Shown here one piece after another: positions 1 to 59,619 of a stretch of DNA of 64,000 bases. Made by a program: the position numbers and the translations under genes. Below the pieces are notes generated by a model. It was not told the origin of the DNA and did no database searches. It saw nothing but the letters and a program-made list of their open reading frames with translations. The number at the start of each line of letters is the position of its first letter. The first letter of the stretch is position 1. The stretch comes from Chrysomallon squamiferum (Eukaryota; Animalia; Mollusca), in contig CM022665.1 of NCBI GenBank assembly GCA_012295275.1, forward strand, positions 46,872,001 through 46,936,000. Direction: 5' to 3'.

Positions 1-3000
1 ATCTGGACACCGGCTACTCAGTATGGTCAGTATGTGACTAAATATGATATCATGTGGACACCACTGGACAAGGGTCCATGTTTTGTCTATTTAAACCACA
101 CAGGTGATATAAAAGGTTTAGTACCTGGAAAACAGTACACTGTTCTAGTGAGAGCTTTCATTATCCAAGAAGGAAGAGTACAGTTTGTAGATTCAGCTAA
201 TATTTCACAGAGAACATGTAAGATTATAAAGTATTTCACTTATCATTGCTAATTTTCTCTGTTAATGATACATTTTATTACTTATATATCCAGTATAAAA
301 AGTGTTATTTCTAACATACACATAAAACATACTCAGAAAAATAGCATGTATAGTAAGAGTGATTTTGAAGTCAAAATTACTTTCTTCTTTTCAAAATGTT
401 TTACTGTTACTTTCGGATTCTCTCTTTACAGGTGTTACAGTTTTGAAAAAGAAAAATAGAAATAATTTAAACATTTATATCAGATAATAAAAAAATTGAA
501 AAAACAAATTAACAAAAACAAACATTTACTGGTATTTCTTGATTTCAGTTCCAGACATACCAGGCCCATTTGATGAAGAAAAAAGTAATTTAACAGCACC
601 AAACATCACGCTGTATTTTAATAAATCTGAAGGAATTGTTGATTACTACATAGTAACTTTAATTGGTGACTCTGACTTTTACAACAAGACTCAAAATGTG
701 ACGTCAGCAGAAAAATATCCTAAACTTGTGTTTAAGGACATAACTGCTGGCAGTTATTACACTTTAAATATCACTGCAGTCAGCTCTGGAGTTTACAGTG
801 AAACCTACACATATAGTAAAATTCGTGGCTCAGTAAAAGGTAAATACAATTTTTAGGTTGAATTATTGTACCTTCTATAAAAACATTTGTTTTAGATTTA
901 TTCTGGTTTGGTTTCTTCTGGCAAATTTTAAAATGTTTATCTTATTTAATGCATTTTAGTAGTTTTAACAGAACCTTTGGTTGAATAAAGATGGCTCTAT
1001 TAAAAACAGTTCTTTTAAAAAATATAACTACGGAATTTAGTACAAATGTTAAAACCAGATGAAATAATAAATGAATAAAAATAATTAATGTGAAACGAAA
1101 TGGTTTAAATGTTCTACTTTTAATACGTTTTAATAATTAAACAAATAATGTATTTTAAGGATTATTAATAGGTATGTTGGAATTTAATAGAAGCAGTGAA
1201 TAAATAATACACAGAATTATATAAAAGGACATTCTGAATATTTTCAAAGCCAATATTAAGGAAACTGTATGATCAGGGAGGAAAAATAAATAAAAAGAAA
1301 CTACTTTAGAATTCAAAACATAAATATTTGAATTTTTCTCTATTTAATGTGGTATTTTTGCAATAAAGTAACAAAATGAAAAATAACGTACTGCAGAGCA
1401 TATGTGCTACTTTTTTTTGTTGTGCCTAAACAATACTTATTTGTTGTTTTCTGTTGTTGTGATAAATGTGTATATCCAGATAATATAAATTGTAATGACA
1501 AACTTAGGTGCCACAAAAAGAAAGAAAACAACAACAACAATAATAATAATAATAATAAAAAAAATAAAAATAAAAATAAATAAAATTAAAATTAAAAATT
1601 AAGTAAAACATAAAACAATAAATGAAAGTAATTTGGATATCAGCTGCTACCTACATTTTAAGCACTAATTTAAATATATATGATTTCTGTTGGTTATTCC
1701 ATCTCTGCAGATTATGTTTATACATTAATATTTTTACTTGCAGCACCTGGAAATGTGTCTCACCTCAGTGTATCAAACATAACCTACAGTTCTATGTTTG
1801 TGTCCTGGAATCGTCCTCACAACCCCAATGGTGTTATATTTGCTTACATTTTAACTCTTAAACTAATTTCAAATGATACTTGTCAACAGAAAGTTGTCTT
1901 TTACTGCAGTGACTGCACAAACATGAGTAACGTAAGATATTTTAATTTATTATTAAAGGTCTTTTTTTTAAAATGTTGTTAACATTTGATGACAATCCTT
2001 GATTTATAATAGTTTTAATAATAATTAGTGTTATCGGTAATTTTAAATGAAACTCTAGGTTCAGAACAGAAAACAAAATATTAAGGAACGCAACTGCATA
2101 AACTGTCTAGATAAGAGAAGAACCACAACACACCAAACAAAAAGTGTATTCTGAATCTATTATTTTACAAATAAAGTAACTATCAACAAAAGCTTGGGTG
2201 AAATTTAATATTTACTAATAAACTGGAGACAGAAAAAAAAAAAAAACAGTATTCATGAAACAAAATTAATGGTTTTAATATATATTTCCTATTCTCAGTA
2301 CTTTTTGGTAAAAATCTATCATTACTTCACATATGTTTAAGAAATTTTTATTTTCCATAATATCTTGTCTTTAACTTTTTAACAGAAGGCTAATTTAAAT
2401 AGCAGATATCGTATTTAATAAACTGCTTGTTTTAAAATTGTTTAATCACAGATGGAGATACAGTAATTGCATACAGTTTACATATATTTGAACAATAATA
2501 TATTTTTTATTACACACTGGGATTTTAAAGCACATGCAGAAACTACCTGGATGAAAAGTATAACCCCAACCCATTAAAATAGAAGTGTATTCTGAAATCA
2601 TTTAGAAATTATTTGTCAAATAAAGTAAATATAAATAAAAGCTTTTTGAAAGTTTATATTTACCAATACATTTAACAGAATAAAAAATAAAAAAACCAAC
2701 CTCAAAAGGAATAATAATAATAATAATAATAATAATAATAATAATAATAATAATAATAATAATAATAATAATAAATAAAATAAATAAATAAACCAATAAA
2801 ATAATTTAAAAAAAACAAGCCAGATAAAAAAAAAATATACCCATGAAAATTTAAAAAACAAAATTAACGTTTTTATATATTTCTTTCCTATTCTAAGTAC
2901 TTTTTAGTGAAATTCTATAGAAATCTGTCATCACTTGAGATGTGTTTAACAGGCTATAAATGAAAATTGTCTTTTCTTCACTATCTTCTCTTACATTTTT

Positions 3001-6000
3001 TAACATAAGGCTAATGTAAACAGTAGGTATAATATTTAATCAACCTTTTGTTTTCAAATTGTTTAATCATAGATGAAACACAGTAATTGATAACATATTA
3101 CATAAATATTTGTATTAGATTTTGCTTTTATTTTAACATTTATGAATGTAGGTTGACAGTGACGCACATTGTGAAGGCGTTAAGCCAGTCAAAGTGAATA
3201 TTAGCAGCAGTGTACTGAATGATGCTGAAGAAGAATTCAGCTACAACCTGACACATCTTTTACCTTTCACCTACTACACAGTCAGTGTGTTTACTTACAA
3301 TGAATTAGATTATGGACCAACATCAGAGATGCACCAAATGTCAGAAACCAAATGTAAGGAATAACTATCATTATATACATTTTAATTAAATATTTGAAAT
3401 AAATAAAAATAACAATAATTGTAGTAAATAAATAAACAAACCAATTAACAAACTAAAATAAATAAATAAATAATAAAATAATAAAATACCTGCATTTTGA
3501 GAATAAAAAGGAGTTATTATTATTATTTGTTTAAACTTTCTGTCTTGTTTAATTATTCTGTTTATATTTTACAATCTGTATTTAAGTTTTACAGATTTCA
3601 ACTGTAATAATTGCAGTGTTTAATTTCTCCAATTTACATTTATCAGATTTTCATTAAGATATATATTAAATAAGCATGACCATTGTATACTTTGGTTTTA
3701 AATCTTTTCCAATTTGTTGCTTTTGTTATTTTAGCTGCAGCACCACCAGACAACTTTAGAGTGAGTGAAATAACTAGTTCTTCCATAACAGTGACTTGGT
3801 CACCAGAGTCTCCAAAACCAGGAAAAACTGACTACAATTTGATTGTTTACGAGAAAGCAGAAAATGGAAAATCAGATATGACAATAAAAAATGAAACTAT
3901 CAAAGGTTAATATCCATATACACATCTGTCTATCTGTATGTCTGGCTGTGTGTCTGTCTGTGTGTCTGTCATCTATCTATCTATCTATCTGTCTGTCTCT
4001 CTATCGATTTAATTAACAATTAAACATGACTCTATTGCATAACTGTTGCTGAAATACCTTTAAACATTTTAGTTAAATTATTATAACTTATTTTAAAACA
4101 ATCTAACAAATAATGTCTTTATCTGAATAAATAATAATAATAATTAGAAGAAGAAGAAGAAGAAGAAGAAGAAAAGAAGAAGAAGAAAGCATGAGAAGAA
4201 GAAGCAAGAGGAATGGAAAAAGGAGATATTATTGCTGTTATTAAATAAATTATTTAATAATTGAATGTGTATTAACAATCATATAAACTGTTATAATTTT
4301 AGGGTGGAGTTCAAACCGTTACACTGCTCAAAATCTGTCTAGTTACTGGGATTATAAGTTTGAGCTAACAGCAAACACATCAGCTGGAGAATCACAACCT
4401 GTGTGGATAGATTACATAAAAACAAACCAATCAGGTAAAGTTTAATTGATTGTAGGTATTGTATTTATGAGGGCTAACCAACTTCAGAAGTTACAATTTA
4501 ATTTAAATAATAACACCATAAAAAAGCTAATGTATATTTTGTAATTAAAAAAGTAATAATAACACCCCCTCCCCCCTCCCAAAAAAAAATGAATAAAAAG
4601 CTAAAACTCAGAAGTTAATAATTTTTGTTTGATTGTCTTCCATCATTTAAAATTATGCTTATACATTATGTTTTTTACTTGCAGCACCTGGAAATGTATC
4701 TGATCTCAACATATCAGACATCACCTACAGTTCAATGTTTGTGTCTTGGAATCATCCTGACAAACCCAATGGTGTTATTTTTGCTTACATTTTAACTCTT
4801 CAACTAAAGTCAAATGACAGTTGTCAACAGAAAGTTGTCTTTTACTGCAATGATTGCATGAACATGAATATTGTAAATAATTTTTTACTTACTATTAAAT
4901 TTTATTTTTAAATTTTTAATCAAATGTTGATGACAATATTTGAATTAAAATGGTTTTAATAATAACTTGTATTATTGGTATTTTACTTGAAAGTCTTGGT
5001 TTAGAACAGAAAAAGAAAAATCAAGGAAAGCACAAGCATAAACTCTCTAAATGAAAAGAAGAACTCCAACCCACTAAACAAGAAGTTTATTCTGAAACTA
5101 TTTAACAATTATATTTCAAACAAAGTAAATATAAACAAAAGCATGTGTGAAATTTAATATTTACTAATAAATTTAACATAGGAAAATAAAATAATAAAGT
5201 ATAAAATACCCAAGATAAAAAAAAAAAAAAATAAAAAAAAAAATAAAATAAAATAAAATAAAATAAATAAAATAAATAATAAATAATAATAATAATAATA
5301 TTAATAATAATAATAATAATAATAATAATAATAATAATAAATAAATAAATAAATAAATAAATAAATATCTATGAAACAAATAAAATTAATGGCTTTAATA
5401 TTTATTTAATATTCTAAGTACTTTTTGGTGAAAATCTATCATTACTTCATGTGTTAACAGGCTATACATTTTTATTTTCTTCAATATCTTCTCTTTAATA
5501 GAAATGTTTTAATAGAAGGCCAATGTAAACAGTATATATCTTATTTAATAAACTGCTTGTTTTAAAATTGTTTAATCACAGATGAAGATACAGTAATTGC
5601 ATACTGTTTACATAAACATTTTTCAGTGATATATTTTTATTAGATGTTTTATTTGTTTAATCATTTATGAATGTAGGTTGACGGTGACATGAATTGTGAA
5701 GGTGTTACACCAGTCAAAGTGAATATTAGTAGCAGTGTACTGAATGATGCTGGAAAAGAATTCAGCTACAACCTGACACATCTTTTACCTTTCACAAACT
5801 ACACTGTCAGTGTGTTTACTTACAATGAATTATATTCTGGACCAACAACAGAGATGTATGAAATGACAGAAACCAAATGTAAGACATAACTTTCATTAGA
5901 TACATTTCAATTAAATATTTAACAGGATATATATATATATATATATATGTTTGTATATATAAACAACAACATTAACTGTAGTGTATAAATAAACCAACAA

Positions 6001-59600: not shown

Positions 59601-59619
59601 GTTGAATTTACAACACAAA
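53620..59619 (+). CDS. Gene D: 5' part of a fourth EGF/EB-FN3 receptor paralog, 3'-partial near the assembly gap
   Basis: Exons 53620-53673 (MLSGLISVIAVTLLCCIQ|gt), 56300-56429 (ISLCSLGAECKTTDNC..), 57276-57407 (Cys module), 58399-58671 (FN3), 58872-59003 (Cys module), 59335-59619 (FN3). Each is homologous to a gene B exon, with the same phases. Confidence 0.85.
55970..56183. mobile_element. ~192-bp insertion flanked by an 11-bp target-site duplication
   Basis: tattaaagcac at 55970-55980 and 56173-56183. The paralogous introns of B (~37158-37168, reverse complement) and C (~50058-50068) carry the empty site. There is an internal inverted repeat, ctcgttacgat/atcgtaacgag. Confidence 0.75.

Follow-up and report, generated by a model that had tools for sequence, protein, structure and literature searches.

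We analysed a 64,000-nucleotide (nt) stretch of the Chrysomallon squamiferum genome (assembly GCA_012295275.1, contig CM022665.1, positions 46,872,001 to 46,936,000 of the forward strand), hereafter the window, which is AT-rich, intron-rich animal DNA with a GC content of 24-35% per 2 kb. Exon models, built from the window DNA by splice-site scoring and frame chaining, placed three clustered receptor genes in it. Gene A (+ strand, 1-16848; 28 exons, 1278 amino acids (aa)), whose 5' end lies beyond the window, encodes a predicted receptor-type protein tyrosine phosphatase (PTP), and genes B (- strand, 38551-20960; 26 exons, 1658 aa) and C (- strand, 50632-39632; 17 exons, 897 aa) encode related receptors without the phosphatase. 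Every intron of the three models is bounded by GT-AG, and internal stops number 0. EB/EGF-like modules occur in B, C and a further gene, D, each of which opens with a hydrophobic leader exon followed by an EB module; Pfam EB scored above its cut-off for B2, C2 and D.

The ectodomain of C resembles that of A across exons 4-11 (73-93% aa), and B has four exons in common with the visible part of A (73-88% aa). The stalks of A and B are homologous, their alignment score of 315 being reached by 0/1000 shuffles, and the exon phases of stalk and transmembrane (TM) segment are alike in A, B and C (1-1, 1-1, 1-2, 2-1 for the 71-nt exon, and 1-2 for the TM exon). An earlier note on this DNA had described a four-exon stalk with matching phases and a phase 1-2 TM exon in all three genes, ten post-TM exons encoding the PTP domain in A and a single tail exon in B and C; our models reproduce this arrangement, with the TM-to-tail splices at 21847>21266 and 40458>39959 as had been proposed. 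The 71-nt stalk exon, which the note called identical, is so in length, whereas its sequence differs (57% nt identity for A vs B, 66/71 for B vs C). A furin-type site occupies the matching stalk position in each gene (RHKR in A, 8942-9064 +; RFRR in B, 23224-23373 -, and in C, 41889-42038 -), so that the ectodomains may be cleaved or shed. We also observed an element of ~150 nt (83% identity), containing GGAA cores that we take to be ETS-like, which lies upstream of the start codon in B and, in the opposite orientation, in C (39086-39234 and 51492-51648).

Table 1. Positions of the modelled features in the window, with the basis of each assignment.
Feature	Position	Strand	Basis
Gene A exons 1-13: FN3 array with internal duplicated block (exons 3-6 vs 7-10)	1..8010	+	models; FN3 of exon 2 by Pfam/Atlas
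Gene A stalk, 4 exons, phases 1-1, 1-1, 1-2, 2-1, furin-type RHKR	8400..10831	+	models; homology to B stalk
Gene A TM exon, phase 1-2	11217..11319	+	model
Gene A cytoplasmic exons 19-28: single PTP domain and C-terminal YENR, YQNV	11856..16848	+	model, Pfam
Gene B tail exon: YEMM, YNVP, YVNV, YERL-x9-YSKL, stop	20960..21266	-	model; X1 RNA contigs tile 20900-21264
Gene B TM exon, helix without charged residue	21847..21952	-	model; both flanking splices joined in 3/3 RNA runs
Four-exon stalk of gene B with furin-type RFRR; PTP_tm match under its cut-off (E 0.056)	22252..23940	-	model, Pfam
Gene B exons 17-20: FN3, 84-95% nt identity to A exons, introns unalignable	24292..26810	-	sequence comparison
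Gene B exons 1-16: signal-peptide exon, EB module, FN3/EGF-like exons alternating in tandem repeats	27197..38551	-	model, Pfam
Gene C tail exon: YCNV, YVNV, YEKL-x9-YSNL, stop	39632..39959	-	model; C-type TM-tail joint in X2, loose end in X1
Gene C TM exon and four-exon stalk, closer to B (81-96% aa) than to A (30-57%); PTP_tm E 0.017	40458..42641	-	model, comparison
A-like block of gene C (exons 4-11, introns included), with breakpoint near A 8212 / C 42807	42807..47848	-	comparison
First three exons of gene C: signal peptide, EB module and FN3	48586..50632	-	model, Pfam
Gene D 5' part, six exons, open frame 335 aa	53620..59619	+	model
Gene D signal-peptide exon	53620-53673	+	
Gene D EB exon	56300-56429	+	
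Gene D EGF-like exon	57276-57407	+	
Gene D FN3 exon	58399-58671	+	
Gene D EGF-like exon	58872-59003	+	
Gene D FN3 exon	59335-59619	+	

By its predicted anatomy (FN3 repeats, single PTP domain, stalk phases and YxN motifs), gene A is an R3-type receptor phosphatase. Its exons 22-26 match Pfam Y_phosphatase, and the PTP domain retains KNRY, the catalytic Cys motif and the Q-loop; the model, whose stop lies at 16848, contains one hydrophobic helix and a single PTP domain, and no second PTP-like stretch was found within the window. The features of R3 phosphatases include a juxtamembrane module with the intron code 1:1:2:1:2 and a C-terminal YxN, according to the main text of PMC5336234. The stalk and TM phases of A (1,1,1,2,1,2) contain this code plus one extra phase-1 intron, and its C-terminal YENR and YQNV represent the R3-type YxN motif. 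FN3 exons of A are seen within the window, and A probably carries EB/EGF-like modules, as found in its paralogs, upstream of the window start. The residues aligned to the WPD loop read WED, retaining the general-acid Asp and departing from the canonical loop; the same source gives WVD or WTD at this position in sea-urchin R3 phosphatases. Pfam PTP_tm gave no match on A exon 16 and only matches below cut-off on the B and C exons, and in single-exon PDB searches of the A PTP domain R3 chains were not preferred, two-domain chains scoring double.

Several sequence peculiarities accompany gene A. The exon before the one carrying the WED loop (14742-14896, +) has Val for the usual Cys of KCxxYWP, and activity or substrate range may be altered. 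In intron 16, a tandem duplication (71%; 9974-10785, +) includes a second copy of the 71-nt exon's acceptor and opening bases, which leaves a decoy acceptor near 10327. A 57-nt minisatellite of 4.6 copies (15472-15733, +) runs up to the acceptor of the exon with which the catalytic motif is completed.

The tails of B and C (101 and 108 codons, 72% identical) each occupy a single exon, carry YVNV and close with a C-terminal YxxL-x9-YxxL preceded by ENE in B and GNE in C, as had been read in the earlier note; YEMM and YNVP are found in addition in B, and YCNV in C. With a spacer of 9, both tails match the rule for an ITAM (immunoreceptor tyrosine-based activation motif), YxxL/I-x(6-12)-YxxL/I, and also the version with 6-9 residues. 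Among 100,000 shuffled tails the 6-12 pattern arose in 0.7% (B) and 0.2% (C), and within the last 25 residues in 0.07% and 0.02%, respectively, although the two tails are not independent instances. A motif scan of both tails detected no ITIM (immunoreceptor tyrosine-based inhibitory motif), no ITSM (immunoreceptor tyrosine-based switch motif) and no NPxY, and such readings of the tails were rejected. Internal tail indels between B and C are multiples of three in 4/4 cases, compared with 0/6 in the 3' untranslated region (Fisher P 0.005): the tail exon is under coding constraint. Because the TM helix contains no charged residue, any signalling would have to come from the tail itself. Neither a PTP remnant near B or C nor PTP-like sequence anywhere in the window outside A was found, and a derivation of the tail from the cytoplasmic exons of A was rejected, with no similarity above shuffles (P 0.24-0.62).

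Pfam holds no family for the tails, and homolog searches with single exons (the tail, a B stalk exon and an A FN3 exon) returned no relatives, which counts as weak evidence. Searching 1.84 billion representatives with a tail profile yielded one match at E 1e-3, a repetitive bacterial-type protein rejected as chance, and metagenome scans gave 213 (tail) and 596 (stalk exon) pattern matches, of which 0 were confirmed. In the ESM Atlas, the first match of the tail scored 0.90 among mostly Mollusca with low recognition, which serves as a lead only, and the FN3 exon fell into generic FN3 clusters.

RNA contigs, all from runs of one study, were compared with positions 20520-22690 (2171 of the 64,000 nt), and the figures given here are among the matches listed. 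B and C are both transcribed. Two joints, 21847>21266 and 22252>21952 (71-nt exon to TM exon), are present in 3/3 RNA runs; in a fourth run, which covers introns and may be the source of the window sequence, neither joint was among the matches listed. The small RNA shares of X2 and X4 were not taken as evidence in themselves. In X1, most of the TM-tail intron is without cover among the matches listed, overlapping contigs cover 20900-21264, and the contig over the ITAM region has three other letters, none of them within the ITAM, a stretch in which C differs from B at 12 places. Each of the three RNA runs contains the five letters of the 71-nt exon that are diagnostic of C, and a tail start of C type is joined to the TM exon in X2 and appears as a loose end in X1; B-type and C-type contigs are both present in X1 and X2, B- and C-type RNA thus occurring in the same samples. 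An X4 contig (18 other letters and 6 gaps in 134) and an X3 contig (39 other letters and 14 gaps in 366) match neither of the two genes, so that there are additional paralogs with such tails, or strongly divergent alleles. At least three tail types, the third in X4, are represented among the spliced transcripts. We further noted that the in-frame donor before the 71-nt exon is weak (22890 and 41558, both -) and that a stronger-looking donor lies 4 nt further on, whose use would bring a stop before the TM exon and possibly a secreted isoform; loose ends in 3/3 RNA runs confirmed the weak donor, which was the sole donor among the matches listed.

These joints, together with the absence of PTP-like sequence outside A, ruled out that B and C are truncations or splice onward to PTP exons. 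The proposal that both are intact genes, transcribed with the TM-to-tail splice, is upheld by complete models with 0 internal stops, by the lack of a PTP remnant nearby and by spliced transcripts. The two genes differ in architecture, and we rejected the notion that they are haplotype copies of each other.

The three genes differ sharply in age from one part to another. Between A and C, synonymous differences amount to 45/292 sites in the distal FN3 exons vs 87/125 in the stalk and TM exons, and between A and B to 34/206 vs 82/125; the proportion of synonymous differences (pS) of A vs B or C is 0.15-0.17 in distal FN3 exons and ~0.7, which is saturated, in stalk and TM. Exons A8 and C6 show 0/45 synonymous differences. 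The likeness of A and C extends through the introns from about A 1095 to 8212 and ends 206 nt into C intron 11, later introns being unalignable; a sliding global A-C alignment was noisy beyond 8300, and the breakpoint is not based on it. By contrast, the likeness of B is confined to exons: B exons 17-20 are 84-95% identical to their A and C counterparts, except B17 vs C3 (70-73%), while introns 17, 18 and 20 score no higher against A or C than shuffles do, and intron 19 barely exceeds them (61 vs 57). We rejected the idea that introns simply turn over fast and so leave only the exons alike, since the stalk introns of B and C, similar in synonymous age, can be aligned well.

Exon-confined likeness of A and B over a saturated stalk and TM suggests that the PTP-bearing and tail-bearing types split long ago and exchanged ectodomain exons recently. 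The shared FN3 exons were likely kept alike by recent exon copying, that is, gene conversion, and C looks like a chimera with its breakpoint near A 8212 / C 42807. Between B and C, the ratio of nonsynonymous to synonymous change (dN/dS) is 1.17 in the shared ectodomain exons vs 0.37 in the stalk (nonsynonymous to synonymous differences 45:11 vs 21:17, P 0.012), and 0.28-0.37 over stalk and TM; the high ratio of the shared exons fits diversifying selection or relaxed constraint. Likeness by conversion over older divergence, which A, B and C display, is a hallmark of paired receptors, and its presence here goes beyond the earlier note.

We propose that B and C are phosphatase-less paralogs of A that act as activating partners in a paired-receptor system whose brake is A's own PTP domain, a reading to which we assign a probability of about 55%. 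What this reading predicted of the genome, namely B and C transcripts, TM-to-tail splicing and no PTP remnant, was found. An R3-type receptor phosphatase gene would have been duplicated long ago, and in one copy the ten cytoplasmic exons would have been lost and a single unrelated exon, coding for a tail of ~100 aa, acquired. FN3 exons would then have been copied repeatedly between the PTP-bearing and tail-bearing types, and C would have formed as a chimera with a B-type start, an A-type FN3 block and a B-type stalk, TM and tail. A ligand on the shared FN3 region may cluster B and C, upon which a Src-family kinase would phosphorylate the tail, YxxL-x9-YxxL would recruit a tandem-SH2 kinase (Syk or Shark), YVNV would recruit Grb2, and the signal would drive uptake or an immune response. 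Bound by the same ligand, A would bring its own PTP domain and damp this signal; we infer these opposite outputs from the PTP domain on the one side and the ITAM pattern on the other. The binding preferences of SH2 domains for YxxL and YVNV motifs are established background. The setting is probably invertebrate immune recognition, most likely innate recognition in which a microbe or parasite exploiting A would be countered by B and C, as in CEACAM1/CEACAM3.

A number of observations weigh against this proposal. The spacer of 9 fails the strict ITAM rule of 6-8 residues, an acidic residue at -3 of the first Tyr is present in B (E-N-E-Y) and lacking in C (G-N-E-Y), and the 6-12 pattern likewise turns up in 14/211 stop-free frames (>=60 aa) of the window, which is AT-rich. 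At 72% identity, agreement between the B and C tails at four motif residues says little, YxxM is confined to the B tail, and the dN/dS of the tails, 0.70, is not significantly below 1 (P 0.32). Within the window, A offers no counterpart to most of the B ectodomain (16 exons), so A and B may not share ligands. The WED loop may mean that the activity of A is altered, and R3 phosphatases such as CD148 can activate Src kinases, so that A need not be inhibitory. A dN/dS near 1 also fits relaxed constraint, and conversion between close inverted paralogs can happen without selection. In the RNA, a B-type X1 contig differs from the B TM exon of the window at 10/108 letters, of which two of those listed are C's and one is found in neither gene; it may represent another allele, a converted copy or a merged contig, given that contigs can merge paralogs and that the RNA comes from one study as contigs only.

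The same genes might instead work with the same sign. One ligand would co-cluster A with B and C, A would lift the inhibitory phosphate from a Src kinase, and this kinase would phosphorylate the B and C tails, making A the enzyme and B and C the scaffold of a feed-forward pair. CD148 and CD45 prime Src kinases for ITAM signalling, and conversion would keep ligand specificity matched under this arrangement as well; A also carries two C-terminal YxN motifs, a site reported for R3 phosphatases in the main text of PMC5336234. We nevertheless consider such a partnership improbable, because the fast change of the shared B/C exons fits an arms race better than a fixed partnership, and the extra tail variants and gene D suggest that the tail-bearing side is expanding, as activating members do.

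A similarly doubtful account treats B and C as decoy or endocytic receptors that bind either A or its ligand and remove or block it, possibly serving adhesion or development and not immunity, with YxxL as a YxxPhi sorting signal, YVNV as a Grb2 site and no part for Syk. Lone YxxL motifs are common sorting signals, the ITAM-like pattern is weakly specific, and the furin-type sites at the same stalk position would permit shedding, but two YxxL motifs at a fixed 9-residue spacing with upstream acidic residues, with which both tails close (last 25 residues: P 0.0007 and 0.0002), fit tandem-SH2 geometry, and the Syk-binding ITAM of oyster has a spacer of 8 residues in the text available of PMC6994640. 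That B and C are a neutral by-product, either young or converted duplicates with a captured exon lacking a signalling role or an assembly artefact, appears very improbable and is largely refuted: their stalk and TM split from A long ago and are intact, with the low dN/dS given above, tail indels are all in frame, at least three tail types are spliced, and the differing architectures of B and C exclude haplotype copies. The tail dN/dS, the homolog searches that found no relatives elsewhere and the assembly gap in the window are the points in favour of this account.

Several receptor families offer parallels. The ectodomains of FcgammaRIIA, IIB and IIC are homogenised by conversion, and FcgammaRIIC, a chimera that joins the ectodomain of one member to the ITAM tail of the other, resembles C. 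For its signalling Siglec-16 relies on an adaptor together with a charged TM residue, a feature absent from the genes here. These are vertebrate Ig receptors, unlike the genes described here. Siglec-11 and Siglec-16 likewise have ectodomains homogenised by conversion (text available of PMC5701461). A close likeness is to CEACAM1 (ITIM) and the CEACAM3-type ITAM paralogs, which are clustered, carry the activating motif in the member's own tail, and have replaced cytoplasmic exons and, through conversion that hardly enters introns, their greatest similarity in the ectodomain exons (passages of PMC2832619). They differ in their Ig-V ectodomain and in a brake formed by an ITIM recruiting SHP, whereas A, B and C have FN3/EB/EGF-like ectodomains and a candidate brake in A's own PTP.

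Gene A resembles the R3 phosphatases (PTPRB/J/H/O, Ptp10D) in its FN3 repeats, single TM segment and single PTP domain, in an extended juxtamembrane module whose phases close with 1:1:2:1:2 and in the YxN at its C-terminus, and differs in WED for WPD, one more phase-1 stalk intron and probably EB/EGF-like modules upstream. The passages of PMC5336234 consulted here name no PTP-less R3 paralog, the main text lacks the word 'mollusc', and the S1 File could hold PTP-less or ITAM-bearing forms. Among molluscs, the LG5R/SudRes1 scavenger-class-F-like receptors of Biomphalaria also form a cluster of single-pass receptors with like ectodomains, with PTP (1C) and without (1B), and bear on parasite resistance (main texts of PMC13712769 and PMC12297450); they differ in their MEGF/galactose-binding ectodomain, their two PTP domains and the small PTP-less tails without identifiable signature. 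'ITAM' occurs 0 times in these two main texts, whose gene tables could hold ITAM-bearing forms, and the available text of PMC7494358 gave 0 matches for the terms sought in this comparison.

The tails of B and C have counterparts in other invertebrates, as far as the available texts go. Oyster CgIgR carries an ITAM that recruits Syk in haemocytes (PMC6994640), Drosophila Draper acts through Src42A and Shark (PMC8092387), and Hydractinia Alr and Botryllus FcoR provide ITAM/ITIM sets in allorecognition. As proposed for B and C, these receptors have tail ITAMs with a Syk/Shark reader, in clustered families of allorecognition or phagocytosis; they differ in their Ig, EGF or sushi ectodomains, and their opponents are members or isoforms with an ITIM instead of a paralogous phosphatase. 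Literature searches, covering openly available main texts, found no description of ITAM receptors derived from a receptor phosphatase. The nearest published case is Biomphalaria, whose clustered PTP-bearing and PTP-less paralogs carry no ITAM annotation, and ITAM receptors as such are known from oyster, fly and Hydractinia.

In known paired receptors an ITAM member is set against an ITIM member that must recruit a phosphatase, whereas here the candidate brake has a built-in phosphatase and the activating members would be its descendants. More generally, we tentatively suggest a third design of paired receptors, in which the on/off pairs of invertebrates are assembled from a receptor phosphatase and its phosphatase-less, ITAM-tailed paralogs, with conversion and chimeras matching the recognition domains; the scaffold would be R3 FN3/EB here, and the arrangement may have arisen repeatedly on other ectodomains (MEGF) as a general, so far undescribed route of immune recognition in lophotrochozoans. 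If true, this would offer a concrete, testable reading of the PTP-bearing/PTP-less receptor clusters that map to snail parasite resistance, and would suggest that microbes or parasites target R3 phosphatases in invertebrates.

Gene D lies head-to-head with C and continues into a 200-N assembly gap (59945-60144). It has its own signal-peptide exon and an additional EGF-like exon (57276-57407), and a partial copy of its last exon stands beside the gap at 59749-59829, perhaps as an assembly overlap. Inside its first intron is a 65-codon frame with a hydrophobic stretch (54903-55097, +) and no Pfam match. An acidic 85-codon frame without a Pfam match (52888-53142, -) lies near an element at 52448-52715 that has a 77% copy towards the right end of the window (63703-63988); these are perhaps exons of another gene family.

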